A stretch of 64,000 nt of DNA from Paraspadella gotoi. Lineage: Eukaryota; Animalia; Chaetognatha. The position numbers and the translations under genes are program-made. This document shows positions 11,711 through 52,000 of the stretch, piece after piece. The stretch spans positions 2,488,182 through 2,552,181 of the forward strand of contig CM119263.1 of the NCBI GenBank assembly GCA_051294375.1. Direction: 5' to 3'. A model generated the notes under the pieces. It did no database searches, was not told the origin of the DNA, and worked only from the letters and a program-made list of their open reading frames with translations. Position 1 is the first letter of the stretch, and each line of letters starts with the position of its first letter.

Positions 11711-12769
11711 ATTCGTTGGTTTTCGACCCCGTAACAAAAAAATAGAAGATACACCGTTACTTCATAACCACTGGCGGTCGTTGTCGTCGGTTTATCGAAT
11801 GCGTCGTCGTCGTTCATCGTCGTCACAAGCCGGATCGAAGATCGAAAGCGGCGGCAGGGGCGTGGAAGGGGGTAGGGGAGATGGAGGGGGGTCAACGCAT
11901 AGCGGGGAAAGGTGGGGGTGAGGCTTCGTAGAGGGGGGAAGCGGGGGGACAGAAAGTGGTTGTTGTTCGTCCACCATCGTCGTTTTTTTTTTTTCGTTCG
12001 ACTGTCGATGCAGTGAAGTTTTTTGGGTGAACAAAACGACGAACGGTGATTCGGGAGGTGAAAAGTGAACAACGAAATACACAGTGGGAAAAAAAATATC
12101 AACTAAAATATATTATTTATTTATTTTTTTTATCGTTGAATCAATGACATAAAAACATGGAATTCTTCATTTTTCGTCGTCCGATTTTTTTTGGCAACGA
12201 TAAAATTTTCTCTTCAGCTTAAAATATCTTAATATTTGAGAAGTATTTATAGTGAATTTACTATTTATCTTTTTAAATATATATTTATAAGTAAAATAAA
12301 AATATTGTGTTTTTGCTAATAATTATTTAATAATTGCGATAATTGGATGTGATAGACTTGACATCTACATAAATAAGATAATAAATTTAGAGCGACTGTC
12401 AAGATGGAAGAATTTAAAACTATATATTTAGGACATTTTTGTTTACAGATTGTTTATTATTAATATGTCATCTGACATAAAATATTTTAGAGAAATTAGA
12501 AAAGAATGAAATTATTTAATAAAAAATATAAATAAATTAAAAAAATTATACTATTATTATTATTAGTAGTAGTAATTATATTCTTATCATTTTTTTTAAA
12601 ATCATTATTATTATTATATTATTGTTATATTATTTTTTATTATTATCATTTTATTTACTATTATTATTTTTTTAAATTATTTTTTTATAAATAAAGCTAT
12701 TTCTACACAAGGATTACGAACATCTCGATCCGAAATCTCAATTCCTTCAAACAGATAAAATCGATGGGC

Positions 12770-12965
12770 GTCGACTCTGGACTCGAAGCGACGGGCGTCC
12801 AAACCGGTCGCCCGTCATCCGGCGCGCGTACCGCGGTAGCCTCTCTCGACTCCGCCGCATAGCGCGGGCGCCCGGCGAACGTGACGGGCTGCGCGGCGCG
12901 GTGACCCACGAAGTCGACCCGAAACGAAAAACAAAAAAAAACAAAAAAATCATCGACGTCAGAGA
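12770..12965. promoter_or_regulatory. CpG-rich island upstream of the ADA-AK gene (putative promoter / first 5'UTR exon)
   Basis: Dense CG/GCGC stretch inside very AT-rich DNA, about 300 nt upstream of the ATG. There is an acceptor-like ttcag at 13191-13195. Confidence 0.4.
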
Positions 12966-13268
12966 CGAGAATTAACATTCAATTCATACAAACGCGAGAT
13001 TTGAATTGGATTTTGTATTGAGGTTATTATTAATGAATTAAGCAGTCATTCAATCAAACAGTCAGTCAGTCAATCACTTAATTCATCCTTCGATCAATCA
13101 ATCCATCCATCCGTCAATAATTGATTCAATAAATAGAAAGTAAACATGTATTTTTAAAAAAAGGTCATTATTTTTATGATTGTTTTCAACTTCAGAAATC
13201 ACCTCTACTCACCTAACCTCGCCGCTGGCGTCCCCGGTCGTCTCCAGCAGTCGTCGACTTCGGCAAAG

Positions 13269-13347
13269 ATGGCGGAATTGGACGCGGACGAAATCACGAC
13301 GGCCAAAGTGGAGGAGTTCATCCTAAGTGTCTCGACTTCTTCCTAAG
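13269..13347 (+). CDS. ADA-like domain exon 1 (MAELDADEITTAKVEEFILKVSRLLPK)
   Basis: ATG at 13269 and donor CCTAAG|GT at 13348. It ends in 'LPK', which typically precedes VELH in ADA-family proteins. The clean 81-nt version is at 82-162; this copy lacks 2 nt. Confidence 0.7.
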
Positions 13348-16300
13348 GTTCTTGACCGAATGATTGATTGATTGATTGGGTCAAGTGACTTGCTTAATGG
13401 ATTACGAATTATTAATTGATTGGTGATAAATTTATTGTTTTGATTGCCAGCATCAACATAAATAGATAGTTGGATTGCTTTATGAAATTAATATATTTCT
13501 AGTGACCGACTACTAATAGATTAAACGGTGGCTGCAATCATTCGATTTATTGATTGATAGATCAGAGAGTTTTTATTGATTTATTTTGACCGATTTACAA
13601 TCGCTAATCGTTTATAATGATTCGATTTGATCGATGGAAAGATTTGAATGATTGATTGATTGGATCGATCCATCTCGATCGCCATCTTTCCAGGTCGAAC
13701 TCCACTGTCGCCTCGAAGGATGCGTCCGACCCAAGACCATCTGGGATTTGGCGCAGGAGAAACGAATTCCGCTTCCGAGACAAACGGAGAAGAATTCATC
13801 GAGTTTTGCGGAGTCGCGAAAGCGAACGAACCTCCGCTCGATCTTAACCAGTGGCTCAAGAACATCTCCTGCACGGTAGATGGAGGGGTGGAGGAAGGGG
13901 GTGGTCGAGCTGAATGGGGCGTGGGAGTGAAGGGGAAGGTGGATGGGAGCTGGCTGGAGTGAGGGGGGCAATGCAGGGCTGGGAACATGTGACAAGCTGC
14001 AATATCAAGTAAATAGAACCGATCATTACGTGAGAAGCTCCCAAATCAAATAATAGAACCAATCGAACTGTGACGAATTCCCAAATCAAGTAAATAGAAC
14101 CAATCGTTATTTGGGATGCTCCCAATTAAATAAACAGAACCAATCAAAGTGTGACAAGCTCCACAAATCAAGTAATAGAACCAATCAAAACGTGACAAGC
14201 TCTCCAATCAAGTAACTAGAACCAATCTAAATTCAGGTTCCCATCGTCAAGCTCTACTTCCACGTGTGTCGCGGCGACGCGGCCGCCATCAAGCGGACGG
14301 CGATGGAAATGCTCGAGGACAAAGCGAACGAGGGCGTCATCTATGTAGAAGTTCGTTACCCGCCGGGGATGATGGCGGGTGAGAAAATGATAGCTATCTA
14401 AATATCCATCTATCCATCCTTGACTCTTTCTCTCGAAACAAGCCCATGGTCTGACGATAATATCCATAATTATCCATATATTATCTATTAATCCATCCAT
14501 AACTCACTTTAAACAGGCCGGGCCTAGATATCTATCTTACTATCTTACTATCCATCCCTTACTCTCTCTAAACAAGACCCGCGATATCTAGTAAGGCGCA
14601 ACAGGTTACAAACTAACAGAAGTCCGTTATAAATATTGTTAATGTTGAGGCTACTTACCACAATGTGTTTATTAAAGATCGCTGAAAAAAAATATAATTT
14701 AAGATTTATCTTATAGTTAAACGCATGAACATTTTTATGATTCTATAGTAACGCATGAAGCTATTTTATATTTTCCGAATACAATGTAATGTCAAAATTT
14801 TTTAAAATAAATTTTAATTTTTTTAAAACGGATTCTGATAGAGCTTGAAAAGTTAGACGAAGGTTATTAATACAACTTTTAGAAATTTTAATGATTTATT
14901 TATAAAAATTAACAAAAACTATAAAATTTAATGAATGATGATGATATTGATGATAATGATAACGTTTTAAGGTTTTTTCAAATTTTAGCCCATTTATAAT
15001 TAAAAATTTTGAAATTTGTAGTTCTAACCTTTATCTATAAAAATTTAAATTTCTTAAAAATTTTTCTAAACATTTCTTATATATTGTTAAATATTAAAAT
15101 GCTTCCATGCATGAGGAAATTTAATTTAATAAAATTAAAAATCAAACATAAGTAAATTTGGTTGTAAAAGGAAATATTGTAAAAAATTTAAATTTTGCCC
15201 GCCTTAATATCCTGTATCTATGCAGCTCTCTATCCAACCATGAAACCCTCTCACTCTCAATCAGGCCCGGGACTGACCATGGAGCAAGTGGCCCTCGCCG
15301 TGCAGGACGGATTCAACGTTCTCTCCAAGCAAAGAGGCGACACCATCACTGGCAGATCGATTCTCGTTATCGACCGCGAGAGGCCGCAGGAAGCGGACGC
15401 CATTGTGGAGATAGCGAAGAGGTAGGGGGGAAAGGAGAAGGAGAAAATGGAGGGAGAAGGGGAAGAGAAAAGATGAAGGGAGAAGGGCGGAAGAGGAAAG
15501 GGTTAGGGAGGGGGGAAGTAGAAAGGNNNNNNNNNNNNNNNNNNNNNNNNNGTAGGAAGAAGGTGGAAGAGAAAAGATGAAGGGAGAAGGGGAAGAAGAA
15601 GGGAAGAGAAAGGTGGACTGAGATATTGTTAGTCACGTTAGACTTAATATGAATTCACCGAGGAAATTTTGTGAATGGAATCGCAGGCTTAAGTCGAAAG
15701 GCGTCGTGGGCATCGCGCTCAGCGGAGACGAAAACACGATTCACGAAAACAACCCGACTCACGCGGCCATCGCTAAGGCCTTTGAAGTGAGTCTTCTGTG
15801 TCATTGTTTATTCACGTCGGCCTTTAGGAGTGATCTTTGCTGACATTCGCAATTGCGACAATTTTCACAGTGTTACCCGCCGTCGCTCAAGATTTTGAAA
15901 AGATTAGACTAGCGGTTGCCGACCAAATTCAAATTTTAATGGGAACAGCATTAAACTAATCCATTATTGGTATTAATTATTGTGTTAAAATATTTTTTTG
16001 CAAAAATGTTCCAAACCATGAGTAATTCGCTAATTAATATTATTATATCGCTAAATAATGTCAAAAATTTTTTTAGATATTTTAAAGTTTTAGATATTTT
16101 AAGTTTTTTTAATAGATTCTGATAGAGCTTAAAAAGTTAAGCAAAAAATATAATTACAATTTTTAAAATTTTGATGTTTTAATTTTATTAATTTTATTAA
16201 TTTTAACCCACTTATCATCAAAATATTGAAAAAACAATTATACTTTGTGCAGATAACTTTTCATAAGCTATTTGAATCTGCTTTTAAAAATAAAAAATTC

Positions 16301-16549
16301 AAAAAAAAATTTTTGACATTTCCTATCTATAAATAAATATTAAAAAAAATAATTACTAATGCTTCTTGCCATTTTAGAAAATTTTGCTCCATTGAAAGTT
16401 TTCTCAGAAATGTATAAAGTTTCATTTGGAAAGGTTCCCAATTCAAACTTCTGACCCACCCCATTGACGAAGTTTGGCTCTAATTAGACCATGGCAAGCA
16501 GTTGAAACTTGAAGTCGTCGTCGCTTTTGTGACATGTCCTTAATTGTCC

Positions 16550-16589
<40 letters not shown>

Positions 16590-19500
16590 AATTAAATTTC
16601 TATTATCATTTTTTTCACCCAGAAAGCGAAGAAACTTCGCCTTCACCGAACTGTGAACAACGGGCAAGGAGGTGAAGGATCGAGTTGGAACGTGAAGGAG
16701 GCGATCACTCGACTCAACGCAGAAAGAATCGGTCACGGATACAAGTTTTTTGAAGGCAAAGACTGGGGGGGCGGGGGGGGGTGAAAAGGGGAAGCTGGAT
16801 CGAAGTAGCGGAAAGGTGAACATTCGAAAGTTTAATTTAGAGGAAAACAAAGTTTTTAATTCTTAACAAATGAAATTATAAATTTAAAACAGTAACTTTT
16901 GCTCAATTTAAAATGAAATACGAGGCTGTTGTTGAAAGAAAAAAAATTGAGCTCTGACAACGGTGGACCGGGGTCCAATCCATTTTACGATTAATTCCTT
17001 TCGGGTTAAGCCGACTTTTCATCTTCCTTCCCCCCCCCCCCACAACCTCCTCAGGATCCTGAACTGATGCGACTGGCCAAGGACAAGGGCATCCACTTTG
17101 AGATCTGCCCCTACTCGTCTCTGCAGCGCCGCGCCGTCGACCCCAACTTGCCCTTGACCCAACACCCGCTCAAGACCCTCTTTGAGGGCGGCTTCAGCGT
17201 CTCCATCAATACCAGCGACCCGACGGTTACTCGCAAGGACATCAAGCACGAGTACATCCTAGCCTATGATCAGATGAGCATGACGTTGGATGAAATCTGC
17301 ACCACAATCCGTTTGGCGGCCAGAGCCTCGTTTCAGGTGAGTGGGCGTGGTCTTGGAGTTAAAATAGACTTTTAATATTTTATTTCTAACAGTATAATTT
17401 ATTTGGTTTAAAATAAACTAATAATAAAATCTTATATAAGGTGATAGATGTGAAAACTAAAAAAGTTTTTTAACTAAATTTAACCAAAACTTAATTCTTC
17501 TTCCAGGACGAGAGTCACCGCAACGCCCTCATCGAACGTATGGACGACACCATGTCCAACATCCGGGAGCGCGCCCGGCATTTTGTCCGCTTCCAGCGAG
17601 ACTACCAGGCCTTCTGGGGTCCGGACTTCCGGGTAACCAGTTTGAACATCTCCAACCGGGATGCATTTCCTCTCCACTCCCATCCCGACACTTCCGGTAT
17701 GGGCAACATTGTGGCCAAGAAGAAGCCAGGAGATAAGAAGGTAATTGAACCAGAGGAGAAGCCAATGCCGAACCAAGCACCCTGGGCTCTGAGGGAAATC
17801 GTAAAAGAGGAGGACGTTAAAAAAGGCGTGACGCCCGTGGAGGCGCCCAAAAACGTCATGGTGCCTGGGCTGGGAATGTCCCAGATGAGAATTCCTGTGC
17901 CAATTGTATTCGTGTGCGGCGGACCAGGGTCAGGAAAAGGCACTCAATGTCAACGCATCGTAGAAGAGTACGGCTTCACCCACCTTTCCTCGGGTGACCT
18001 ACTTAGAGAGGAAGTGGCCTCAGGGTCGGAAACAGGTCAGACGCTTCAAAAGATCATGCAGGATGGTGAGTTAGTCCCCTTGGAAACTGTCCTCACATTG
18101 ATCAAGGACAAGATGGTCGATTGCCTGAAGACATCGAAAGGTTTCTTGATTGACGGGTACCCGAGAGAGAGGGAGCAGGGAGTCAAGTTTGAAGCAATGA
18201 TTGGGCCTTGCAAATGCGTACTTTTTTTCGACGTTTCTGATGATGAAATGACGGAAAGGCTTTTAAAGCGAGCTGAGACTTCGGGAAGGGCTGATGACAA
18301 CTTAGAAACAATCAAGAAACGATTAGAAACGTTTCATGCGACTGTTGACCCAATTTGCGAGTATTATGCAAAGAAGAACAAATTGTATCAAATTGATGCT
18401 GACTCCCGTGGGCCTGACGAAATCTTTGAGGACACTAGGGCAAAGATGGACATCGTGATTGGGAAGGTAAAAGCCCCTCCGCCCAAAATAAAAGCTGATG
18501 TGTTTTTTGTCTGTGGAGGACCTGGTTCTGGAAAGGGAACGCAATGTGACAGAATCGTTAAGAATTACGGATTCACTCATATTTCATCTGGTGATTTGTT
18601 AAGAAATGAAGTCGCCTCCAATTCTCCAAAGGGAAAAGAGCTGAATGAACTGATGCAAGCAGGAAAACTCGTTCCGCTCGAAACGGTTCTCGGGCTCATC
18701 AGGTCTCAAATTGTCAAAAAGGCCAGAACATCCAAAGGTTTTCTTATTGATGGCTATCCAAGAGAAATCGCTCAGGGCATCAAATTCGAAGATCAAATTG
18801 CTAATGTCAAGGGTGTTCTGTATTTTGATGTCTCTGATGAGGAAATGACAAAGCGTTTGCTGAACAGAGGCAAGACCTCTGGCAGAGTTGACGATAACAT
18901 TGAAACAATTCAAAACAGATTGAGCACCTTTCATGCCTCAACAGAGCCTGTCTGTACTCATTACAAAAAGAAGGGGAAACTGAGAGTGATTGATGCAGAG
19001 CGTCCTCCCGAAGATGTTTTTTATGATGTGCAAGTTCAACTCAACAAGTTCCTCAAGCTTCCGCCTCCAGCCGCTCCAAGAATCGAGACTGACATCTTCT
19101 TTGTCTGTGGAGGTCCTGGTTCGGGAAAGGGAACTCAATGCGAGCAAATAGTCAAAGATTATGGCTATACCCATTTTGCAACGGGAGATTTGCTCCGCGC
19201 TGAGGTCGCCTCTGGATCTTCAAGGGGAAAAGAATTACGGGCCATAATGAAGGAGGGCAAGTTAGTGCCAATTGACACTGTCTTGGAATTGGTCAGAGAC
19301 GCGATGTTGTCAAAGAGGTCAACGTCCAAAGGTTTTTTGATTGATGGTTATCCAAGAGAAGTAGCGCAGGGTAAGCAGTTTGAAGACAAGGTCGGCGAAG
19401 TTAAGGGAGTGTTATTTTTTCAAGTGTCAGACGATGAAATGACCCAAAGATTATTAACTAGAGGAAGAATTACCGGCAGCAAGCACGATACGGAAGATTC

Positions 19501-22500
19501 TATTAGAAGTAGACTAGCAACGTTTCACGAAACTTCAGATTCAGTAAAGGAATTCTACAAAAAACAAGGAAAATTACATGTTATTAATAGTGAGCGTAGA
19601 GAAAATGAAATATTCAGAGATGTTGCTTTATCCTTGGACAAAATTTTGGGATTAAAGAAAGTTCGTTCTGATATATTTTTTGTTTGTGGTGGTCCCGGCT
19701 CAGGAAAAGGAACACAATGTGAAAAAATGGTAAGAGAATATGGCTTTACTCACTTGTCAACGGGGGATTTATTACGTGCAGAAGTTGAATCAGGATCTGC
19801 AAGAGGGAAACAACTCAATTCTTTGATGCAAGCTGGAAAACTTGTACCAATGGAAATTGTACTAAATCTCTTAGAAGAGGCAATGTTAGCAAAATTTAAA
19901 ACTTCTAAAGGATTTTTGATTGATGGTTATCCTCGCGAAGTGGAACAAGGAGTTGCTTTTGAAAAGCAAGTTGGAAAATGCAAAGGAGTATTGTACTTTG
20001 AGGTATCAGATTCAGTCATGATAAAGCGGCTATTGAATCGTGGTAAGACATCAGGGCGAGTTGATGATAACATTAGTACAATTCGCAAACGTCTACAAAC
20101 ATTTCATGATGCCACAACTCCAGTTTTTGAGCATTATGCAAATCAAGGAAAACTGCACACAATTAATGCTGAACGATCACCAGATGAAATTTTTCTTGAT
20201 GTTAAAAATGAAATAGAATGGATGCTAGGGGTTCGGCCAAATATTAAGGGAGACATTTATTTTGTCTGTGGGGGACCAGGTTCAGGGAAAGGTACACAAT
20301 GTGAAAAACTTGTAAAGAGATATGGATTAACACATCTTTCATCTGGAGATTTATTACGTGAAGCTGTTATGAGTGGATCTCCAATAGGTCAAGAACTTAG
20401 TGCTATTATGTCAGCTGGAAGGCTAGTTCCTTTAGAAACAGTATTGAAACTGATTCGTGATGCCATGATCGCTAAAGCGGCAACTTCAAAAGGATATTTA
20501 ATTGATGGTTACCCACGAGAAATAATACAAGGAATTAAATTTGAAAATCTCCTAAAACCATGTAAAGCAGTAATTTATTTTGAAGTTTCTGACAAAGAGA
20601 TGACATCGAGGTTACTCAATAGAGGTCAAAGCTCTGGAAGAGCTGATGACAATCAGGCAACCATTGCTAAAAGACTTGTTACATTTCATCGAACAACCAC
20701 GCCAGTAGTAAATCATTACAAGCATATAGGAAAGCTGATAGAAATTAATGCTGAAAAGCATCCAGATGATGTGTTTGAAGTGCTTAAAGCAGAAATGGAT
20801 GAATTAACAGGACTAAATGAAACAGCCCCGCCTGTAGAAATCTGGGACAGGATTAATAATGGTTACATGACGGTGAGTAGAAGGCATTATCTCAAAGTTA
20901 AAAAATTTTTTAAGAAAGATAAAACTTGGATTTTAGATAAAAATACCCTTAAACCAGTCGAAGTTACATGGAACCATTTCATGAAAATACGAAATGAATA
21001 CAGGCTATCTTCCCCTGAGCTTTCATGTAGACCAGGAGACAACACTTTGTTTGTAAATATTCCAGATAAAATAAATGGTACCAAAATGCGGGTGACTTGG
21101 GAAATGTGGCTTAAAGTTCGGAACCATATTGAAGTAGATATCTTTGATAAAATAAATCATTGTTGGATGGCAGTACCAAGAGATGATTATTTGAAGACAA
21201 AACATTATTATCAAACAGAACAAACATACATGTATGATAAAATAAATCAATGTGAAATGAAAGTTTCCTGGAAAAATTTTTGCATGGTTCGACACTTTTA
21301 TACTGATATGATTATTGATGCGCATCCAGGAGATAAAACATTGCATACAACTATTCATGATAAAGTCAATAACTGTCTCATGAGGGTTACTTGGGAAGAC
21401 TATCTAAAAGTAAAACATCATTATCTTCCTAAGCCAAACCTGGAAGGGAAACCCATTATATTTGTTTGCGGTGGACCTGGAAGTGGAAAAGGTACTCAAT
21501 GCGAGAAAATTGTAAAGAACTATGGATTTACTCATCTTTCCTCAGGAGATCTGTTAAGAGATGAAGTTGCTTCCGGTTCAAAAAGGGGGAAAGAGTTAAA
21601 TGCATTGATGCAATCAGGTCAGCTTGTTCCTTTAGAAGTGGTTTTAGAATTAATAAAAGATGCTATGATAGCTAAAAAAGATACTTCAACTGGATATTTA
21701 ATTGATGGCTACCCTCGCGAGGTGGCTCAGGGAAAAATGTTTGAGGACACTATAGGATATTGCAAGGGAGTGATATATTTTGATGTTTCTGACGATGAAA
21801 TGACCAAGAGGCTACTTCACAGAGGAAAAACCTCTGGCCGTGTTGATGACAATGAAGAAACCATTAAGAAAAGGTTACAAACCTTCCATGACGCAACTGC
21901 CCCTGTAACAAAGTATTATGCTGCCATTAACAAACTGTATACTATTAATGCTGAAAGGAATCCTGACGAAATTTATAAGGACGTTGTGAATGCTCTTGAT
22001 CAGATGATTTTGTCTGATTCAAAAGTTATCTTTGTAATTGGAGGTCCAGGATCTGGAAAAGGAACACAGTGCTCTAAATTACTCAAACGATATAATCTTT
22101 CACACCTTTCCTCAGGAGATTTGCTCAGGGAAGAGGTAGCAAGTGGATCAGATATTGGAAATACTGTTAAGGATATTATGAAAAGAGGAGAGCTGGTTCC
22201 CTTACAAACAATATTAACCCTAATAAAAGATGGCATGGTAAAAAGATCACTTAAAGGAAGCAAAGGTTTTTTAATTGATGGATATCCTCGTGAAGTCGCA
22301 CAGGGAGACAGTTTTGAAAGCATGATTAAGCCATGTGATAAATGCCTTTTTCTTCAAGTTTCAGATGAATCAATGACAAATCGCTTATTAGCAAGGGCAG
22401 CTATGAATAAACGATCTGATGAGAATGAAGAAACAGTTAAAAAGCGATTGAAAAGTTTCCATGGCATAATTCAACCAGTTGTTAACCATTACAAAGACAA

Positions 22501-25500
22501 AAGAAAACTGGTTGAAATAACTGCAGAAGGAAACATTGATGACATATTTTTAGCGATAACTAAGAATTTGGATAAAGTTTTTAAGCTGTCAAATCCACCT
22601 ACACAGATATGGGATCGAGTCAATAATTGTTTTATGACCGTACCCTATGATGTGTATAAAAATGTAAAACATTTTTATAAAAGAGATACTACTTATATCT
22701 ATGATCGTGTCAATAAATGTGGCATGGAGGTCACATGGGATCAGTACATGAAAGTAAGACATCTTTATGCTGATTCAAAATTAGAAGTTTCACCAAGACC
22801 AGGAGACGAAACTATATATGTTGTAGCCTTTGATCATGTTAATAAAGCTAAAACAAGGATGTCATGGGAAAACTACCAAAAATTACTTGAATGGTTTAGT
22901 GTTAAAATTTGGGACAAAGTAAACCACACTTGGATGACTATACCAAGATCTGTTTACTATACAATCAAACATCATTATGAAGATAATACTACTTTTATGT
23001 ATGATAACATAAACAAGTGCCCAATGAGAGTTACTTGGAATAACTACCTTAAAGTAATGCATCATTTTGATGGTATGTTCCCAGAAATTTCTCCGAGACC
23101 AGGAGATGTAACACTTTATGTAAAAATTCCAGACGAAGACAACAAGAAAAAAATTAGAATGACCTGGGCAGATTACCAAATGATAAAAAGTCGTTTCTTT
23201 GTTGATATCTATGACAAAGTTAATGACTCTTGGATGACAGTTCCACGCAAGATTTATCTGACTGTAAAACACCATTATAAAAAAGATAAAACCTATATTC
23301 TTGATGAAGACTGTCCAAAATTGGTTTCGTGGTCCGATTATTGTAAAAACATGCATCATTTTGCAGACGTTACCCCCGAAATTTCACCAAAACCAGGTGA
23401 TGATACTTTGTATGTTCTTATTTATGATAGGGTAAACCAATGTAACATGAGGGTATCCTGGAATATTTATCAAACTGTCAAGCATTATTACAAGCCACCC
23501 CCATTAGAAGACAAAATAATAATTTTTGTTTGTGGAGGTCCTGGAAGTGGCAAAGGTACCCAGTGTGAGAGAATTGCACAAAAATATGGGTACACCCATC
23601 TGTCTTCCGGCGATTTACTTAGGGCAGAGGTAGCAAGTGGTTCAGCAAGAGGACAAAAACTTGCAGTAACCATGCAAGAGGGAAAGCTTGTTCCCTTAGA
23701 ATCTGTTTTGAGTCTCATAAAGGATGCAATGATACAGAAATTTGATGAATCAAATGGGTTTATAATAGATGGTTATCCAAGAGAAGTTGAACAAGGAAAA
23801 AAATTTGAAGATCAGCTTGCCCCTTGTAAAGCAGTTCTATTTTTCGATGTATCAGATGAAGAAATGAAAAATAGATTATTACAGCGAGGAAAAACCTCTG
23901 GGAGAGCTGACGACAATGAAAAAACCATAATGAAGAGAATAAGAACATTCCATGAAGTTTCAGAACCCGTGAATGAATATTATAAAGAAAGAAGAAAATT
24001 ATTTACTATAAATGCAGAAAGGCGACCAGGAACTGTATTCACAGATGTAGAACAAGTTTTAGACCAAATAACACTCGAGAAAACTAAAGTATTATTCATT
24101 ATTGGAGGACCAGGAGCTGGTAAAGGTACACAATGCAAAAAATTATCTAATGAATTTAATCTTTCTCAAATGTCGTCTGGGGATCTTCTACGAACTGAAG
24201 TTGACTCTGGTTCACATCTTGGAACAGCTTTGAATGATATCATGGGAGTTCGTGAGCCAGTGGCAGTTGAAACTGTACTTAGGTTATTAAAACTAAAAAT
24301 GGTCAATGAAGCCTTAAACGGAAGTCGTGGATTCTTAATTAATGGCTTTCCACGAACAGTGAAACAAGGAGAAATGTTTGAAAAAATAATAAAACCAGCA
24401 GACACTTGTATTTATTTTAATGTTTCAGACAAAACAATGTCTGACCGATTAAAGCAAAACGCTAAAAATCAAGGAATTGAACTTGATGATGATACTATTC
24501 AAGCCAAATTAGAAAATTTTCATAAAACTTCACATCCTGTATATGTCCAGAATCGTGCAAAAGGTAAAATGATTGAAATAAAAGCAGAAGGAGATGTTGA
24601 TTCGATTTTCAAAGAAACAAGAGCACGAGTTCAACTTGTAATGAGTCCAACACCACCAGATCTTTCGAAAAAGCCCATAATTTTTGTGTGTGGCGGGCCA
24701 GGAAGTGGTAAAGGCACACAATGTAATAAAATTGTTGAAAAATATGGTTTTACTCATCTCTCCTCTGGAGACCTGTTACGGGAAGAAATTGCCTCAGGAT
24801 CGGTCAGAGGTAAACAGTTAAATGAAATGATGGTAAATGGAGAATTGGTACCATTAAAGATAGTGCTGACATTAATAAAGGAAGCAATGATTGCTAAAGC
24901 TCATACATCCAAAGGTTATTTGATTGATGGGTATCCTCGTGAAGTAGAGCAGGGAAAGCAGTTTGACTCATCCATTGCACCGTGTACAGCCGTTTTATAT
25001 TTCGAAGTTTCCCGTGGAGAAATGACCAAACGTTTGATGAACCGTGGAAAAACTTCCGGAAGAGTTGACGATAATGCTGAAACCATCAAAAAACGACTGG
25101 AAACTTTTTATACTGTAACAACTCCAGTAACCGAATATTATAATTCTATCGGAAAGCTTTTTACTATTAATGCTGAGCGTACGCCAGATGCCATCTTTAA
25201 TGATGTAGAAGATGCATTGGATAAAACAGTTTTAAAAGTCCCAAAAGTTCTTTTCATTGTTGGAGGACCAGGCAGCGGAAAAGGAACACAATGCGAAAAA
25301 CTGGTCTCTTCCTTTGGTCTCACTCATTTATCATCAGGAGATCTGTTGCGTGAAGAGGTTGCCTCAGGGTCAAAATTAGGTAAAGATTTGGATAAAATTA
25401 TGAAAAAAGGAGAACTTGTACCTTTGGAAACCGTGTTGTCTATTCTCAAGGCTGCTATGGTTAAAGCAGCTTTAAAAGGAAGCAAAGGGTTTTTGATCGA

Positions 25501-28500
25501 TGGGTACCCCAGGGAAATTCGACAGGGTACGCTCTTTGAAAGTATGATAAAACCCTGTAGTGGAGTAGTTTACTTCAAAGTTTCTGACAAAGCAATGACA
25601 GAAAGGTTGTTGAAAAGAGCCAAGACAAGTGGCAGAGTTGATGATAACAAAGAAACTATTAAAAATCGTCTTGCCATCTTTCATCAATCAACGCAACCAG
25701 TTGTTGGGCACTATAAAGCTAAAAGAATGCTTGTTGAAATTAATGCGGAAGGAGATATTTATGATATCGCAAATGAGTCATTGACCAAAGTAGATAAAAT
25801 ATTTCATCCACCGCCAGTTGACATTTATGACAAGATTAACAGAAGCTGGATGACAATACCTCGAAAAAATTACCTCAAAGTTAAACATTACTACGATAAT
25901 GATTATACATTTATACACGATAAGGTTAATGATTGCCCAATGAGGATATCATGGTATAACTTTTGTAAAGTTAAACATTATTATACAGAGAATGATATAA
26001 AAATCTCCCCACGGCCGGGAGATAAAACACTTTACGTTGAAATTTATGATAGAATTAACGTTGGATACATGAGGGTTTCGTGGGACGTTTACCAAAGCGT
26101 TAAACATTATTACGACCCGCCAAATCTCAAAGAGAAGATCATAGTTTTCGTTTGCGGTGGCCCAGGCAGCGGAAAAGGAACACAATGCGAAAAGATCGTC
26201 AAGAAATACGGTTTCACTCATTTATCATCCGGAGATCTTCTTCGGGACGAAGTCGCATCCGGGTCTTTGAGAGGTGCCGAAATTAAGAAACTGATGAAAT
26301 CCGGGAAACTAGTTCCCCTGGAAACGGTTTTGACTTTGGTCAAGGACGCGATGATCGATAAAGGACATTTGACCAACGGATTCCTGATCGACGGATATCC
26401 TAGAGAAATAGAACAAGGAAAACAGTTCGAAGAAATGATCGCTCCTTGCAGAGCCATCATTTATTTCGAAGTTTCCGACAAGGAAATGACCAAGAGATTG
26501 TTGAACAGAGGAAAATCGTCCGGCCGAGTCGACGATAACGAGAGAACTATCAAGAAAAGATTAGCCACTTTCCACGAAGCCACTAAACCAGTGGTGAGTC
26601 ACTACGAGGATCAAGGAAAACTGGTCGCCATCAACGCAGAGAGAACCCCCGACGAAATTTTCAAAGACGTCTCGAAAAATATAGATAAGATAATCTTGCA
26701 CGATCCGAAAGTGTTGTTCATCGTCGGAGGCCCCGGATGTGGTAAAGGAACTCAATGCGAAATGTTGGTCAAGAAATTCGGATTGACTCATCTCTCATCC
26801 GGGGATTTGTTGAGAGAAGCCGTCGCCTCGAAATCCCCGATCGGTCAACAATTGGACGAAGCGATGAAGAGAGGAGAATTAGTTTCACTCGCCGTCGTAC
26901 TCGAGCTGATCAAGGAAGCGATGATCAGAGCCGCGTTCAAAGGCAGCAAAGGATTTCTCATCGATGGATATCCGAGAGAGATAGAACAAGGAAAGAAATT
27001 CGAGGAGGGCATCAAACCTTGCGACAAATGTCTCTATTTCAACGTCTCCGATCGAACCATGACGTCCAGGCTCCTCAAACGGGCGAGGACGAGCGGCAGA
27101 GTCGACGACAACGCGGAAACGATCGAAAAACGTTTGGTCACTTTTCACAAATCGACTCAACCCGTCGTCTCTCATTATCAGAGAAAAGAGAAACTCGCGG
27201 AAATTCCGGCGGAAGGAAGTAAAGAGGACATTTTCGCCTCGGCCTGTAAATACGTCGAGATGGTTTTCAAACCGCATTTAGATTTAAGAACGAAACGCAT
27301 CATCTTCGTCTGCGGCGGACCCGGCAGCGGGAAAGGAACTCAATGCGAGAAGATCGTAGCCAATTACGGATTCACTCACCTCTCTTCTGGCGACCTCTTG
27401 AGACACGAGGTCGCCTCGGGCTCCTTGATCGGGAGAGAGTTGAACGCGATGATGAAAGAGGGAAAGCTCGTTCCCATGGAAACCGTTTTGAAGCTGTTGA
27501 AGGACGCCATGTTGGCGAAATCGGAATTCGCCAACGGATTCCTCATCGACGGATATCCGCGAGAGATCGCGCAGGCGCAAAAGTTCGAGGAGATGGTCGC
27601 TCCTTGCAAAGGCGTCGTTTATTTCGAAGTCTCCGACGGTGAAATGACCAACAGGCTCTTGCAACGCGGGCAAAGCTCGGGTCGTGTGGACGATAACGAA
27701 GAGACCATCAAGAGCAGACTTGCCACATTCCATCAGGCGACGGCGCCGTTGACGACTCATTATAACAAACAAGGAAAGTTATTCAAGGTCAACGCGGAGA
27801 CGACGCCCGACGAGATATTCGATGACGTCCAGAAGGCAGTAGACAAGATCATTCTCAGCGATTGCAAAGTACTCTTCGTTGTTGGCGGGCCGGGCAGCGG
27901 GAAAGGCGAGTAGATGGATGAATGAGTTAGGGTTAAGAGTGATGGATTTGAGTATAAGGGACCATTAAGTAATAGAGTGATGTGAAAATAATATAACATA
28001 TAGAATATAAAAATAAAAAACCAATAAAAATACTTTAATAATTTTATTGTTTTAATTTTATATATTAGTAAGCACTAGTGAGCTATATTTACATATAATA
28101 AATATATAATAAACTAAAATTTCAAAATACAAATTTTTAAATTTTAGGATTGGATTTGAATTCCTAACAAAAAGTTAGTATAAGAAAGTATAATTCTTTT
28201 TTAAAAATTCTTACATTAAGTTAGTCAAAAAACTTAAAAAAAGAAGAAAAGAAAAAAGAGAGGAAGACAAAGATATTTTATGTACATCTTATTCATTTTC
28301 CAATCCATTATATTAAATACAAGGCTGCTCAAATCCTTTTCAAATGACCTAATTTTACACATGCCATTTAAAAAAAAAGGAACCCAATGCAAGCGGCTCA
28401 AGCGAGACTTCAACCTCGCTCACATCTCCTCCGGCGACCTCTTGCGAGACGAAGTCGCTTCCGGATCGCAGATGGGCAAATCCTTGGCCGTCATCATGAA

Positions 28501-28906
28501 GAAGGGCGACCTTGTTCCCTTGGAAACCGTCCTGACCCTGATCCGCAAGGCGATGGTCAAAGCGGCCCTGAGCGGTTACAAGGGCTTCCTCATCGACGGA
28601 TATCCGCGCGAGGTGAAGCAGGGCGCCATGTTCGAGTCGATGATCAAACCGTGCGACGGATGCCTCTACTTCAACGTCTCCGACGAAACGATGGTGGAGA
28701 GACTGTTGAGCCGCGGCGTGTCCAGCGGAAGAGCAGACGACAAGGAGGAAACCATCAAGAAGCGTTTGGTGACCTTCCACGATTTGACGGAACCAGTCAT
28801 CGAGTATTACAAGCAGAAGGATAAGATCATTGAAGTCATTGCGGAAGGAGACGTGGATGAGATCTATGCCGACGCGATCGAAGGTTTATTACCCATTTTC
28901 GACTGA
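13269..28906 (+). CDS. Giant ~4000-aa fusion protein: ADA-like pseudoenzyme domain + 15 tandem adenylate kinase domains + 6 copies of a ~98-aa repeat (spliced gene, 9 coding exons)
   Basis: Manual splicing gives exons 13269-13347, 13694-13875, 14237-14378, 15265-15421, 15687-15786, 16623-16754, 17055-17336, 17507-27905 and 28380-28906. Phases match at all junctions except 6/7, which is ambiguous by 1 nt. Exons 1 and 2 carry 2-nt and 1-nt deletions that are absent from the duplicate at 82-162 and 513-640. Exon 8 begins GAC GAG AGT CAC (DESHRNALIER), in frame with the 3457-aa ORF at 17540. Confidence 0.82.
13694..13875 (+). CDS. ADA-like domain exon 2 (VELHCRLEGCVRPKTIWDLAQEKRIPLP...WLKNISCT)
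   Basis: ttccag| acceptor and ACG|GTAG donor. Matches human ADA [28 protein letters not shown]. It has a 1-nt deletion relative to the copy at 513-640. Confidence 0.8.
14004..14230 (+). repeat. ~40-nt minisatellite in ADA intron 2
   Basis: About 6 degenerate units of caaatcaagtaaatagaaccaatc(g/a)aa..gtgac.agctc. Related sequence at about 860-1100 and 2192-2275. Confidence 0.75.
14237..14378 (+). CDS. ADA-like domain exon 3 (VPIVKLYFHVCRGDAAAIKRTAMEMLEDKANEGVIYVEVRYPPGMMA)
   Basis: ttcag| acceptor and G|GTGAG donor. Matches ADA [36 protein letters not shown]. Confidence 0.88.
15265..15421 (+). CDS. ADA-like domain exon 4 (GPGLTMEQVALAVQDGFNVLSKQRGDTITGRSILVIDRERPQEADAIVEIAKR)
   Basis: tcag| acceptor and AG|GTAGG donor, phase 1 to 2. 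Matches ADA LTPDEVVALVGQGL...ARSILCCMRHQP. Confidence 0.85.
15687..15786 (+). CDS. ADA-like domain exon 5 (LKSKGVVGIALSGDENTIHENNPTHAAIAKAFE)
   Basis: cgcag| acceptor and GAA|GTGAGT donor. Matches ADA VVAIDLAGDE...HVQAYQ. Confidence 0.85.
15920..16468 (+). mobile_element. Foldback/MITE-like dispersed repeat, copy 1
   Basis: Colinear with 50334-51087 (gaccaaattcaaattttaatgggaacag...aacttctgacccaccc). It has imperfect internal inverted symmetry, for example tgtcaaaaattttt / aaaaatttttgaca and gattctgatagagctt / aagctatttgaatc. Confidence 0.65.
16623..16754 (+). CDS. ADA-like domain exon 6 (KAKKLRLHRTVNNGQGGEGSSWNVKEAITRLNAERIGHGYKFFE)
   Basis: cccag| acceptor. Matches ADA IHRTVHAGE...VKEAVDILKTERLGHGY. 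The donor is uncertain: GAAG|GCAAAG is one base out of phase with the next exon. Confidence 0.85.
17055..17336 (+). CDS. ADA-like domain exon 7 (DPELMRLAKDKGIHFEICPYSS...SINTSDPT...AARASFQ)
   Basis: ctcag| acceptor and CAG|GTGAGT donor. Matches ADA HFEICPWSS...YSLNTDDP...AAKSSFL. Confidence 0.9.
17507..27905 (+). CDS. Giant 10.4-kb exon: end of ADA fold, linker, AK domains 1-14, start of AK15, and three repeat blocks
   Basis: Uninterrupted 3457-aa ORF. GGPG[S/A/C]GKG P-loops start at about 17918, 18515, 19109, 19688, 20270, 21470, 22040, 23534, 24104, 24692, 25262, 26156, 26726, 27314 and 27884. Most domains also have HLSSGDLLR, GxLVP, FLIDGYPRE and the short LID RxxxSGRxDDN of AK1/UMP-CMP-kinase type. 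Confidence 0.95.
20834..21424 (+). repeat. Coding repeat block 1: two ~98-aa units between AK5 and AK6
   Basis: Units begin VEIWDRINNGYMTV and VDIFDKINHCWMAV. Each has three IxDxxNxxxMxVxWxxYxxVKHxY sub-repeats and an (R/H)PGDxTL linker. Confidence 0.9.
22601..23491 (+). repeat. Coding repeat block 2: three ~98-aa units between AK7 and AK8
   Basis: Units begin TQIWDRVNNCF, VKIWDKVNHTW and VDIYDKVNDSW. Each contains SP(R/K)PGDxT(I/L)YV. Confidence 0.9.
25817..26113 (+). repeat. Coding repeat block 3: one ~98-aa unit between AK11 and AK12
   Basis: VDIYDKINRSWMTIPRKNYLKVKHYY...SPRPGDKTLYVEIYDRINVGYMRVSWDVYQSVKHYY. Confidence 0.9.
28380..28906 (+). CDS. Terminal exon completing AK domain 15 (G|TQCKRLKRDFNLAHISSGDLLR...EGLLPIFD*)
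   Basis: Joins to GGPGSGK G| through the GC donor AAAG|GCGAGT at 27906 and the acceptor AAAAAAAAAG| at 28379, restoring GKGTQC. AATAAA at about 28987. Confidence 0.9.
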
Positions 28907-46000: not shown

Positions 46001-49000
46001 ATGAAAACTTTAGTTTTAATTTACTAATAAGATCCCTTAATTTTTTAATTCACTTCTGTTTCTAATGATCAACAAATTTAATTTACAGTTTAATGAAAAG
46101 AATTCCCAGTGCATAATTAAATTAGGGATGTCCTATATCGCATTTTAAGAATTGAAACACCTTTAAATAATACTGCCACAGAGCTCAAGTATGAATGAAG
46201 TAAACTTTTTTAATAATTTCTTTAATTGTAATGGCCATACATGCTCTTGATTCAAAGTTCGAGTTTTGAAGTTCAGAAGTTCAGAAATAAAATCATTAAA
46301 AATAGCATGTATATGGGTATCCAATATTTGAAAATCTAAGACAAATAACATCAATGGGTTAGGGGTTAGAAAAGGGCATAAGAAATTGTTTTATAAAGAA
46401 TTTTAAAAACTCAATGAATATATTAAAAAAAAAATAGGAACATAAGGTATAAATTATGAAAAATAAAATTAGTTAAAAATAGTAATAAAAATTATCTTAT
46501 CTATATAAATAGTTTTAAATACATTAAAGTATATATTAGAAATAATTAAAAATGAACCTCTATGTATAAGCTTTTTTGATTAAATTTTGTGTACAATAGA
46601 AGTTTTTAAACAATTTCATTATAGGGTATAAAAAATCGACTGAACAACCAAGTAAGGTAAACTGGATGCAAAAAAATTTCCAGAAATGCTCTAGCAGTTT
46701 TTTTTGGAAAATTCAAATGAGAAAGTAAGAAAGAGAATATGTATCAATACCCTTGAATATACTAATTTCAGACTTTTAAATGTTTTACATCTTCAGCACC
46801 AGCAAAGTTTTTATTGTCATACATAATATTTTGAGATTAAAAAATTAAGGTATTACTTTAAAACAATCTAATGATAATATATTCTTATATCTTATACTTA
46901 TACTGTATAAATACATCTGAGAAAAAACTCCTATGAAATGTACTGAAAAATTGAAATGACAACAAAGATCAGCAACAACTTACTTGCAATTACAAAAATA
47001 TTTTTGGTGTTTGTTACTATATTGAAATTAATATTAGCTAAAACACTCCAAAATTGTCAAGATGTTATCTCAACATCGTTAATAGTTAACTGCACAAAAG
47101 AAATAAAAGAATATTACATTCTCCCGAATGTTTTAAGAGGTGTATCTCATAATTATGATATAATAAATGTTTCTAAGTATGTTTCGAATTTGATTTCAAA
47201 ACAATGAAAAAATTTTAAATGATGATACCGACCAACGTCTTACTTAAGTAAAGATGACAGGGAATGGGGGTTATGGTTATGGGTACAGCAATCAAAAAAA
47301 AAAAATTAAATCAATGTCCAAAAAGAGGAAGATGCATGCAAATTATGTATAAAACAAAATTTTAAAGATTAGTTTTATTATATTAAATTTTTAAGTTTTA
47401 AATAAGTGCTTTTTCCCGTAGTCCAAAAATCTTTATAAATCAATGGAATGGACCTTGTAATGCGTTTGATCATTCACTTTTTTGATCATCTGACAATCAC
47501 AGGCAACTCCAGCCTAACGCTGACAAAGGGCCGACAGAGATAGAGGTCAACGGCCGATTAATTATTTTATTTTCAAGTTCTTGAGATATGTTGTAAAGAG
47601 TGAGATATCCCTAGACAATCTTGGCCTTTGACCCCTTGTTCCGTCGCTTTTGGTCAATGGTCAGAGGTAGACTGTCGTTTGTCCATTGGTCAATTCCGTT
47701 GATGAAATTTATTAAATAAAAGAAATTGCTTCAAATGTTAACAATGTAACATACTATTTCATTTTAATTAACTAATAAAATACAGAGATGAAAAAAACGC
47801 GCATAGTTCCTCAACCCTGATAATATGAAACTAACTACTCGAATCTACAGCAATTAGGCTGCTGCTGAGTTAGTCACAACTTCTTGCAAGGTTAGGCATA
47901 CTGAGTGTCTACAACACGCATGCATAAATACTAAATAGAGGGACTGAAAAAATAAAATCTTGAAAGTCAGAAAATATTCTCAAAATTAATAATTCTAACT
48001 TTCAAAATAGTCATATAACCATGGTTAGCACTGGATAAAATGTGAATAAACACTTTTGAGAAGATATTCACGTCAGAGTTGAACTATTTTACATTTTCGT
48101 TTTATTGTTTAATTTAAGCCAAGAGAGACAAGCCACTTGATAATCCATTCTGTGTTGCTAATAAAATGAAAAATATGTTTTCTTAAAACAAAATACATTA
48201 AAATAAATATTTCAAATAATATTTTTCATCAATTTTTACAAAAATCTATTTTAAGTAAGCTTAAAAAGGTGTTTATAAATATAATCAAATCTGACGTGAA
48301 TATTACTTCTAAGAAATTGCTGCCGCGAAAATACTAAAAAGGGCTATTGTGAAATTGTGAACAAAACAGTGGTAATGAAGGCAAATATGGAATAAGGCGC
48401 ATAATTGCTACAGTATCGCACAAAACTCTGCGACAATGAGCAATGAGAGAATTAAAAAAAAATAAATTGAATGAGGTCAAACTCACCTGCGTCTGGAGTC
48501 GAGTGAGGCCTCTGATCCAGAGGATCTGTCCGCGCTTGAGCTCCGGCGGAGTTGAAATGTCTTGTGGCATTTTCTCACTTCCTGTTTGAATCGGCTCCGG
48601 TTCTGGCTCAGGCTCCTCCACGAAAAATCTGGCCGGGATGACCTCATCCGGGACGCAATTCACCACCTGCAAAAAATATTACGATACTACAGATATAATA
48701 TAAAAATTTCTTTTCGTCACTGACCACAACAAAAGAAACGACAACGTTGATGACGACGACGACGACAATAACGCCGATAATAATTAATTGACGTATTAAT
48801 TAATTTATTGAATAATTAATTAATTAATGAAAAAATCGATTGATTGAATAATTGATTGATCCATCGCCTAATTAATTAATTATTGATTAATTGATTAATT
48901 AATACATCTTGCATTCACATTTAATATAAAAAGAAAATAAGGCTTAATAAATTAGTGAAACAGGTTTTTTGTTTTTTCCATTTAAACTCATTTCTACTCG

Positions 49001-52000
49001 GATGATTTCATCTAAACTTTTCCAATTTCAAGTCAATAGCCCCATACAATGAGGAATTGGCGTTTATACAGACTGACGGACGGACAGATGGAAATCAATT
49101 TTTTTGCATAATTGATTCGATAATAAAATCGTTGCAACAAAAACAACGATAATTAAGTGGTAATCAGCTAATCCGATGATATATAACGATAATTATTTCT
49201 GACTTTCAATTTATGATCTTACCAGACTTTTACAAATCATAACATAACAAACTATAACAGACTTCTTAATAAATCTATGAAAAAATCTCTAAATCAATTG
49301 ATCTCTCAATGATCCAGTAGCTGCGCCAATGACCAACTTGCATAATTTAGTCAACTTGCATAATTTATTCAACAGGCATAACTTGGTCAGCGGGCATAAT
49401 TTGGTGAACTTTCATAATTTGGTCAACTGGAATAATTTTTTCATATATTTTTCATAATTTTGCTAATAAACCATAAAGATTTCTCAATAAACTATAAAAA
49501 AATATATTATGGAGAATTAAAATCCACCAACCGTTCATCAGCGGCCATTGGTGCCGGAGGCAAGTCATTCGCCTCCCAACCCAAAGGTCCGGGGTTCTAG
49601 CCCGGTGGTCGCCTAGCAGTTAAGAGAGACGGGGCGCTTAACCCGCCTGTAACTCGGTGTTACAGCCTGATCCGAAGCTCAGGGACTGCTTATATTGAAC
49701 GGTTCTGTCACTAACACAACAATTATCACTGTCTCTTCAATATCAATAAATCAGTCCATCAACCTAAGAATTAGCTAATTAATGATTTTATTTGTAAGAG
49801 AGAGAAACTTAAAAAAAATTCAAATTTATGTGACTTTTGCTTTTTCCATTAAAACTCTTTTTTAACGATTCCATCGAAACATTAAAGCTAGCTTAATCAC
49901 AAACTTCTACCCACACAAAAAATTTTATTCCAATCCAACNNNNNNNNNNGAATCTGCTGATAAGCAGATCCGACTAAAAATTGGAGGGTAGAAAACGTAC
50001 CTGACCCCACAAAAGAACACCCAAGCCAAAGAAAACGCACCATAGCCAAATATCAGCAGTTAAAGAGTGTGTACTAAAGGCTCGTCCCCCAAATTCGATT
50101 ATGACAACCTTAAAAATAGTTTTTTTAAATAATTAAGTCATTATAATCATGAATTAATATTCGTACTCACTGTTTCTTCCAATTAACAATTGACAGATAT
50201 TTTCAAATTAGATAAACAAAATTCATATATTATATTTTTCTTTCTTATTTGCTTTTCTAGATGTGGATCAAGATACGTTCAATTTATGTAAATGAACTTT
50301 TTCCATGCTTTTTTCCTATAAAAAGCGATAACTGACCAAATTCAAATTTTAATGGGAACAGTATTAAACTAATCCATTATTGGTGATAATTATTGTGTTA
50401 AAATATTTTTTTGCAAAAATGTTCCGAACCAAGAGTAATTCGCTAATTAAAATTAAAATATATTATATAATGTTAAAATTTTTTTTATATATTAAGTTGT
50501 TTTAATTGATTCTGATAGAGCTCAAAAAGTTCAGCAAAAATTGTAAATACAACTTTTTAAAATTTTGATGTTTTACTACTGAAAATTAGTAGCGGAAAGA
50601 AACCGAAATTTTTGTTTTTACAACGATTTGTTTTTTTAATTAGGACAAGTTTTCATCAGCAATTATCAGTTTCAAAGTCGAAACATGTCCTAAATAAAAA
50701 ACAAATCGTTGTAGAAATAAAAAAATCGTTTTCTTTCCGCTAATAAATTCACACGGAACGAAAGGAAAATTAGTAAAAACTGCTAGTGCTAAAATTATCG
50801 GATGATGATGATGATGATTTTTCAAGGTTTTTCCTAATTTTAACCGCGTTATCATCAAAATATTGAAAAGAGAAATATACTTTGTGTAGACAATTTTTAA
50901 TAAGCTATCTGAATCTGCTTTTAAAAATACAAAATTTAAAAAAACAAATTTTAACATTTTTTATCTATAAATAAATATTAAAAAATTAATTACTAGTGCT
51001 TTTAGCCATTATAGAAAATTTTGGTCCATTGAAAGTTTTCTCAGAAATGTATGTTTCATTTGGGAACTTCTGACCCACCCAATTGACACTATCGAATTGT
51101 ACCTGCGAAAAAAGCGTTCCAAACCAAATGGTGTAAAAAATAGGATTTACAAAAACTCCTTGAAACACATTCCTTTGTCCGTGAATTTTTCTGGAATAAA
51201 TTTTAAGAAATTTAATTTTTATTGAGTCAAATCTTTTTAGAGAAATAAAGGATTTCAAATGACTAACATGTTACCTTGCATTTATTTCATTAAATAAAGT
51301 CATCATAACAAAAACGTTGAAAACAATAGTAAAATGAACTGAGGGTGGTGAACCTATTCTTGCTCCGATACCGCTGTCAATATCGAATATTGGAGAACCT
51401 GTAACAAAGTATTTCATTGCTGTAAGAAGTTACTTGAAAAAAATGTTAAAAGCAATTGTTGCGATTATAAGGAAGGAACTTTTGATGCAACCAGGAATGA
51501 GAATGAAAATTTTTTTCCGCTGATAACTAAGCGCTAAATACTAAATTTGAATAGGTACTTACCAAAATATAATATCACGAAAATAACCAGAAGCTGGTAG
51601 ACTGCATGTCCCAGAATATTTTTTAACATTGTTCTGGAAATTAAAGGTTTTGTTCTTCCATATGGTTTACGATCCAAAAGAGAATCATCTGGGTATTCCG
51701 TTGCAAGAGCTAATGATGCTAATGTATCCATTATTAGATTAACCCACAACATTTGTACTGCCCGCAAAGGCGAATCCTAAATATGAATCAGATATTTAAA
51801 AAAATAGTCAAAATGTAGTGAAAGTACAAATAAAACAATTAAATATGTTTACAAAATGCAAAAAGATTAAGAAATTGACTCCATTTTTTGAGAAAACCTT
51901 TTTAATTATGTAAATGAAATATATACCTTGATAGAAGCCGCTCCAATAAAAGCAACAATAACAGCAACAACATTCACAGTAAGTTGGAATTGCAAAAACT

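Follow-up and report, generated by a model that had tools for sequence, protein, structure and literature searches.

A predicted giant protein of the chaetognath Paraspadella gotoi joining a stripped adenosine deaminase fold to fifteen adenylate kinase domains

Why would an animal build fifteen adenylate kinase (AK) domains into a single polypeptide, and why would the fold of an adenosine deaminase (ADA) stand at the head of them? The question is raised by 64,000 nucleotides (nt) of the Paraspadella gotoi genome (assembly GCA_051294375.1, contig CM119263.1, positions 2,488,182 to 2,552,181), the whole of which is called the window here. A first-pass annotation, made from the letters of the window, had proposed that seven ADA-like exons are spliced to a very long AK reading frame and that a ninth exon completes the last kinase domain. 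On the evidence given below, one spliced 12-kb message would be translated into a chain of 4,000 amino acids (aa) consisting of a stripped ADA, 15 AK1-type domains and six repeats.

The plus-strand open reading frame (ORF) at 17495-27913 is open over 3,472 codons and gives 3,457 aa from the ATG at 17540. A motif scan finds 15 P-loop motifs within it, and the Pfam ADK profile (PF00406) recognizes 14 complete domains and the P-loop of a fifteenth. The same profile matches once more at 28380-28906, in a segment without the P-loop start; when a GC-AG intron is removed between 27905 and 28380, AK15 becomes whole and in frame. Upstream, the A_deaminase profile (PF00962) matches at 17010-17372 (E 1.4e-16), and seven ADA exons between 13269 and 17336 were placed by tblastn with the proteins of the relatives described below. 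The two profiles give one ADA and 15 AK domains, and the layout first proposed is correct in this respect, but it overlooked the six repeats of about 100 aa each. When three insertions or deletions (indels) are patched by N placeholders, the coding sequence (CDS) is 12,003 nt long and encodes 4,000 aa with a single stop; the predicted protein would have a mass of about 451 kDa and a pI of 8.8.

Evidence that the exons belong to one message comes from contigs of four sequencing runs (X1, X5, X6 and X7) aligned to 12600-28200. None of the runs with matching sequence is registered as RNA, and X7 is annotated as DNA by guess, yet it has spliced contigs; X1 is DNA-like. One X7 contig of 3,506 nt links the upstream exon to the seven ADA exons and to exon 8, as far as 19564. 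The six introns that separate the ADA exons are absent from it, as is the intron 17336/17507, which is exactly the junction that had been proposed. The stretch 19535-27906 is covered by four further X7 contigs that overlap slightly. In contigs of X5, X6 and X7 the match to the window breaks off at 27906, and the 587-594 letters that remain unplaced include exon-9 sequence (compared by eye), so the last junction (27905/28380), and with it the proposal that a ninth exon completes AK15, is supported indirectly. Most ADA exons are uncovered by X5 and X6 contigs, which proves nothing.

The ADA exons had been said to be in frame. This is true of the X7 transcript and of the patched CDS but not of the letters of the window, where the exons as given run out of frame into a stop at codon 26. 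Compared with the window, X7 has two more nt near 13325, one more after 13788 and one fewer at 16745-16752. X1 sides with X7 on the extra nt after 13788 and also deviates from the window at 16745-16746. Positions 1-2277 are a noisy duplicate of 13190-15113 (83% identical) that adjoins a 25-N gap. Its differences are mostly insertion errors that rise along it (12, 93 and 142 per segment), and it also has both stretches that are missing near 13325 and after 13788. The duplicate has the look of a long read that entered the assembly unpolished, and the three indels are likely polishing errors of the assembly. Could the arrangement itself be an artefact, in which a distinct ADA pseudogene and an AK array were fused by an assembly or gene-model error? 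The three frame-breaking differences would fit this explanation, as would the poor polishing of which the duplicate is a sign. It is refuted, with next to no probability left to it, by the contig that is spliced across the junction and free of the indels and by four other full-length clusters, each of which is one ORF. Two separate genes for ADA and AK were rejected on the spliced contig and the full-length relatives, and an ADA pseudogene on the same contig and the same four clusters.

These relatives were found by a protein search restricted to 1,909-6,076 aa, which returned 26 matches. The top two, P0003 and P0004, are 4,000 aa long and carry PF00962 and PF00406; cluster look-ups added P0044 and P0347, and the lengths of the relatives range from 4,000 to 4,012 aa (P0347 is among the 4,012-aa additions). 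Identity of the four to the window protein is 70-72%, and among themselves it is 78-89%. One ADA, 15 AK domains and six repeats are present in all five full-length giants (70-89% pairwise identity), and the spacing of the AK domains is constant to a few residues across species. Identity between the window protein and its relatives is 71-72% in the ADA, 67-75% in the kinases and 61-70% in the repeats. The contigs of the four relatives, all of them from environmental collections, are 12.6-12.8 kb, hardly longer than the CDS, and therefore appear to be mRNA-like; the label 'merc' on their collections presumably denotes a marine eukaryote transcript catalogue. Full-length contigs of 12.6-12.9 kb recur in environmental assemblies (P0029 on 10, P0030 on 6), which suggests an abundant somatic transcript. 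Metagenome scans gave no repeat-bearing match and one unrelated two-domain AK (L001). No named protein among the matches listed in three database searches has the layout of one ADA, 15 AK domains and repeats, and no paper on this protein was found in the literature searched, a search that most subscription journals fell outside. The statement that no ADA-AK fusion had been described therefore holds among these named matches and papers. Its companion, that no AK of 15 domains had been described, has to be set beside an unrelated and itself undescribed protein, P0008, that also has 15.

The ADA part matches A_deaminase over the whole domain (E 2e-60), lies above the TIGR01430 cut-off and is 33-38% identical to vertebrate ADA. 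Among the best 120 of 247 shorter matches to this region, every named one is a stand-alone deaminase. TIGR01430, the ADA model, is the best deaminase model among the 25 rows listed, and the tree had no AMPD or ADAL sequences. Residues were mapped on mammalian ADA numbering. H15, H17, H214 and D295, which we take to be the zinc ligands, are H, R, N and S in all five giants, and Q or R stands in place of the catalytic E217; H238 and D296 are retained. All seven catalytic residues are intact in 106 of 117 stand-alone ADAs. Loss of ADA catalysis, as first proposed, is borne out by the replacement of three of the four zinc ligands and the catalytic Glu in 5/5 giants, and judged by these residues the domain is stripped of catalysis. 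Across the giants, 232 of 377 columns of the pseudo-ADA are invariant. D19 (as E), L62, G184, D185, H238 and D296 are retained in all five, and R17, R269, D155 and W61 are gains that all five share. The contacts of the ADA pocket, as given in PMC9058408, are H15, H17, D19, L58, G184, H214, E217, H238 and D295. By its residues the pocket of the pseudo-ADA looks rebuilt rather than decayed, and it may bind a phosphorylated adenine nucleotide. The adenosine- or AMP-sensing role suggested by the first-pass annotation would be one use of such a pocket and gains some support from these residues, and no report of an ADA fold acting as an AMP/ADP sensor was found in the literature searched. A homodimer prediction for two copies of residues 1-385 of P0003, run with no alignment, scored 0.00 and carries no weight either way. 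P0052 and P0063 (JGI) are catalytically intact ADAs with a signal-peptide-like start and ends resembling the pseudo-ADA; they do not group with it in the tree.

The kinase domains were scored at K21, R44, D93, R97, Q101, R128, R132, R138, D140, D141 and R149, which we take to be the AK catalytic set (AK1 numbering). All 11 positions are intact in 12 of the 15 window domains; the exceptions are AK3 and AK9, which have decayed, and AK7, which carries D141E. In the relatives the full set is found in 13, 13, 13 and 15 of 15 domains. The LID arginines and aspartates are retained in 66 of the 75 domains of the five proteins, and the decayed positions differ between species. The nearest solved structure to a single window domain is human AK1 (1z83, E 1.2e-61), and the best profile is TIGR01360, isozyme-1 type, of which P0003 has 15 stretches. 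By profile, and by the P-loop present in each, the domains are AK1/AK5-type adenylate kinases. Intact AK domains convert 2 ADP to ATP and AMP, and the domains of the array are predicted to do the same.

The repeats are the most novel part of the protein. Units of about 100 aa follow AK5, AK7 and AK11 in blocks of 2, 3 and 1, and each unit consists of three copies of I-x-D-K/R-V-N-x-C-x-M-x-V-S/P-W/R-x-x-Y-x-K-V-K-H-H-Y. AlphaFold2 gives a model with three hairpin-plus-helix elements (pLDDT 73.5, pTM 0.55). A profile search of 1.84 billion representatives returned 24 repeat proteins, with P0189 a borderline match (E 1.3e-05). Seven repeat clusters were looked up; every one comes from an environmental collection and is unnamed or 'hypothetical'. 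P0169, P0193 and P0194 (JGI) have no AK and are largely made of the repeat, which appears to be a module of its own since it occurs in such proteins. No Pfam family scored above its cut-off for the repeat, Foldseek gave no match at E 0.001, and there was no usable ESM Atlas match; weak structural (VIA) matches reach at best a Z of 3.3 with a root-mean-square deviation of 3.5 over 53 residues. Such failed fold searches do not establish a new fold.

How does the giant compare with other multi-AK proteins? Among the best 120 of 1,635 shorter matches, 1 has two AK domains, 25 have three, 56 four, 26 five and 12 six to nine. The repeat is found in seven of these, all pieces of the giant, and ADA in none; the remaining 113 are repeat-free. 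Named holders of multiple AK domains are molluscs, an annelid, an echinoderm, amphioxus, sponges, nematodes, a rotifer, chytrids and algae, and chytrid proteins have 8-10 domains (Chytriomyces up to ten). A profile of an N-terminal module of about 60 aa matches 74 of the 113 listed proteins and none of the five giants. Its best PDB match is EFCAB10, a weak one (E 0.039), and we assume that in the AK5-like group the module has a docking role. The SpAK/AK5-like proteins of molluscs, annelids, echinoderms, sponges and chytrids resemble the giant in having tandem short-LID AK1/AK5-type domains in one chain. They differ in having 3-10 domains and mostly the docking-type module, and in that none of the 113 listed has an ADA or the repeat; the AK domains of the giant and those of a three-domain AK together make up separate clades, apart from this group. 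P0008, an ENA protein of 3,425 aa, has a 5'-nucleotidase followed by 15 AK domains and a C-terminal Cys-Cys motif, and in nine central domains the P-loop K is replaced by R. Like the giant it places a purine-catabolic enzyme fold ahead of 15 kinases; unlike the giant it has no repeat and no ADA. The six of its 15 domains in the tree group apart from the animal ones, and on this evidence it is an unrelated and independent construction, itself undescribed.

Several multi-AK proteins have been characterized. SpAK of sea-urchin sperm and cilia has three AK domains (PMC2680645, citing Kinukawa et al. 2007). DAAK1 of Chlamydomonas, an ODA5-associated protein of 188 kDa located at a motor ATPase, has six, and the ciliary AK8 and AK9 have two and four (PMC12680740). 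DAAK1 is a multi-AK chain like the giant; as described, it is set apart by an external anchor, Oda5, by fewer domains, and by having no pseudo-ADA or repeat described. AKs are tethered at ATPases by FHL2 on myofibrils and by Oda5 at dynein, and AK1 forms linear arrays on myofibrils for which the anchor FHL2, to titin, is required (PMC2680645). Vertebrate AK1, the closest solved structure to a single domain of the giant, is one domain with a separate anchor, whereas the giant would have the array and a presumed anchor in one polypeptide. ADA1 matches the ADA part of the giant over the whole domain; unlike ADA1, the giant is fused to AK and lacks H17, H214, D295 and E217. The earlier view that known multi-AK proteins have few domains is not tenable given the six of DAAK1 (PMC12680740), the 8-10 of chytrids and the 15 of P0008. 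By sequence comparison, multi-AK chains are a known kind, and the giant is an extreme member of it with new parts.

The origin of the array can be followed in trees. The first included the AK domains of the window, P0003 and P0004 and six of the 15 domains of P0008. Each of the 15 AK positions groups with the same position in the other species, and the array would therefore be older than these species and every domain would have been kept. AK7, 9, 11, 13 and 15 form one clade (99/91), so the second half appears to have grown by duplication of a two-domain unit. A wider tree left out nine long-branch domains, including window AK3 and AK9, and the tree of all rows agrees with it. In the wider tree, domain 3 of a 606-aa three-domain AK falls with the AK7-type domains and its domain 2 with all the others (99/97 each). 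Three-domain AKs of this type (P0252, P0260 and kin, from JGI and Logan) begin MGNxCGK, a likely lipid-anchor motif, and lack the N-terminal docking-type module. They are the apparent parent of the array, which according to these trees grew by duplicating domains 2 and 3.

What, then, might the giant do? It is proposed that it is an anchored ADP-recycling polyenzyme, probably of muscle, with the repeats as a predicted tether and the dead ADA as a predicted regulator that binds AMP or adenosine; we hold the arguments for and against this to be about in balance. Working next to myosin or to pump ATPases, probably in fast muscle, the AK array would turn ADP back into ATP. The repeats may tether the chain, standing in for an external anchor, and the pseudo-ADA may read, as a regulator, the AMP or adenosine made by the chain. 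The first-pass annotation had suggested a ciliary, sperm or muscle relay. Muscle is kept as the likelier site, at about even chances, and cilia or sperm are weakened to a distinctly less likely one. Muscle is favoured because the module of the AK5-like group is absent, the ancestry is through an AK1-type three-domain protein, and full-length assemblies recur from bulk samples; the assignment to a tissue is tentative. AK is not mentioned in the part of a scallop muscle paper that was available (PMC5963113). If the giant were instead a ciliary or sperm-tail polyenzyme, it would be a scaled-up SpAK or DAAK1 that lies along the axoneme and feeds dynein, with repeats that bind microtubules. The characterized multi-domain AKs are indeed axonemal (SpAK three, DAAK1 six, AK8 two, AK9 four domains). 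Chytrids, which have flagellated spores, hold AKs of 8-10 domains, but AKs of four to five domains are also found in nematodes, which have no motile cilia, and neither the giants nor the three-domain AK from which the array would descend have the N-terminal module.

It is also conceivable, though improbable, that the chain is a structural spacer or an ADP/AMP buffer in which the kinases are nucleotide-binding beads and turnover is secondary. Domain spacing fixed to a few residues, the decay of some AK domains and an ADA that is already a pseudo-enzyme would suit this role, but the LID arginines and aspartates are kept in most domains and the decayed positions vary by species. Slightly less probable again is an unanchored cytosolic or membrane-proximal enzyme of nerve or ion-pumping epithelium, in which the fusion would do no more than multiply the AK made from each transcript, with the ADA and repeats as passengers or oligomerizers. 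The putative lipid anchor of the parent is in its favour, as is the nucleotidase and 15-AK protein built by an unrelated lineage; against it, the ADA and the repeats are constrained nearly as strongly as the kinases, and the repeat is also found in AK-free proteins such as P0169. Several points weigh against the anchored ADP-recycling polyenzyme itself. It is a prediction from sequence, as are the protein, its tissue, its localization and its activity. The best-studied multi-AK proteins (SpAK, DAAK1, AK8 and AK9) are ciliary. The repeat is without a known partner or fold, and a 305-aa model of it has low confidence (pLDDT 49). The pocket arginines suggest phosphate binding and no more than that. 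The decay of AK3 and AK9 in this species indicates that not all domains are needed as enzymes. The ADA joints are seen in X7, one of the four runs aligned; none of the four has a single contig of this species across the whole message; and the number of contigs says little about expression. A bolder form of the proposal, a muscle 'energy wire' of marine invertebrates in which a new repeat fixes 15 AKs to a filament and an ADA-fold AMP/ADP sensor with two new arginines and no zinc gates them, paralleled by the nucleotidase and 15-AK protein of an unrelated eukaryote, is considered rather doubtful.

Table 1. Position of the exons and domains of the giant AK gene in the window
Feature	Position	Strand	Remarks
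Upstream exon (5' untranslated region, UTR)	12766..13022	+	X7 contig 25 joins 13022 to about 13190; start possibly further 5'
Coding exon 1, ATG 13269	13190..13347	+	Window short by 2 nt near 13325
Exon 2, pseudo-ADA	13694..13875	+	H15 retained, H17 replaced by R; window short by 1 nt after 13788
Exon 3, pseudo-ADA	14237..14378	+	X7 splice joints and tblastn
Exon 4, pseudo-ADA	15265..15421	+	X7 splice joints and tblastn
Exon 5, pseudo-ADA	15687..15786	+	G184, D185 retained
Exon 6, pseudo-ADA, GC donor	16623..16755	+	H214 replaced by N, E217 by Q, H238 retained; 1 nt surplus at 16745-16752
Exon 7, pseudo-ADA	17055..17336	+	T269 replaced by R, D295 by S, D296 retained; PF00962 match
Exon 8, 10.4 kb	17507..27905	+	End of ADA fold, ~110-aa linker, AK1-AK14, repeats, AK15 start
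AK1-AK5	17897..20803	+	AK3 without R138 and D140 in this species
Repeat block 1, two ~100-aa units	20825..21445	+	
AK6-AK7 pair	21449..22573	+	
Repeat block 2, three units	22592..23506	+	
AK8-AK11, two pairs	23513..25795	+	AK9 degenerate in this species
Repeat block 3, one unit	25808..26128	+	
AK12-AK14 and AK15 P-loop start	26135..27905	+	GC donor at 27906
Exon 9, AK15 remainder and stop	28380..28906	+	AATAAA at 28987

Some further features of the locus were observed. GC donors are used in two of the eight coding introns (16756-17054 and 27906-28379), and the acceptor of the last of these is preceded by a run of A in place of pyrimidines. The 5' UTR intron (13023-13189) ends in AA in the window, not AG. 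An ATG at 12764 may open an upstream ORF (12764-12980), and the first 31 letters of the X7 fusion contig have no match in the window. G+C content at third codon positions along the exon 17507-27905 runs from 0.59 at the start through 0.20-0.30 in the middle to 0.57 at the end, a gradient that tracks distance from the splice sites. The introns at 14600-15250 and 15900-16450 contain high-copy repeats, for which the contig depth summed in X1 reaches 3e5. At 19109-19143, X5 and X6 contigs match one P-loop only, which suggests another AK gene in the same organism. On the minus strand, a multi-exon plasma-membrane Ca2+-ATPase (PMCA) gene at 48334-60032 was recognized by eye from ORF translations.

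The giant has the longest tandem AK array among the proteins searched, tied with the unrelated P0008, and the array has been kept domain for domain in at least five species-level clusters. By sequence, the parts that are new relative to known multi-AK proteins are the pseudo-deaminase and the unrecognized repeat. Both the conserved pseudo-deaminase, whose pocket looks rebuilt, and the repeat, which has no entry in Pfam, are small enough for expression and assay. The array itself would make it possible to ask of a natural protein whether phosphoryl groups are channelled between covalently linked AK domains, as the long-standing claim of a phosphotransfer relay holds.

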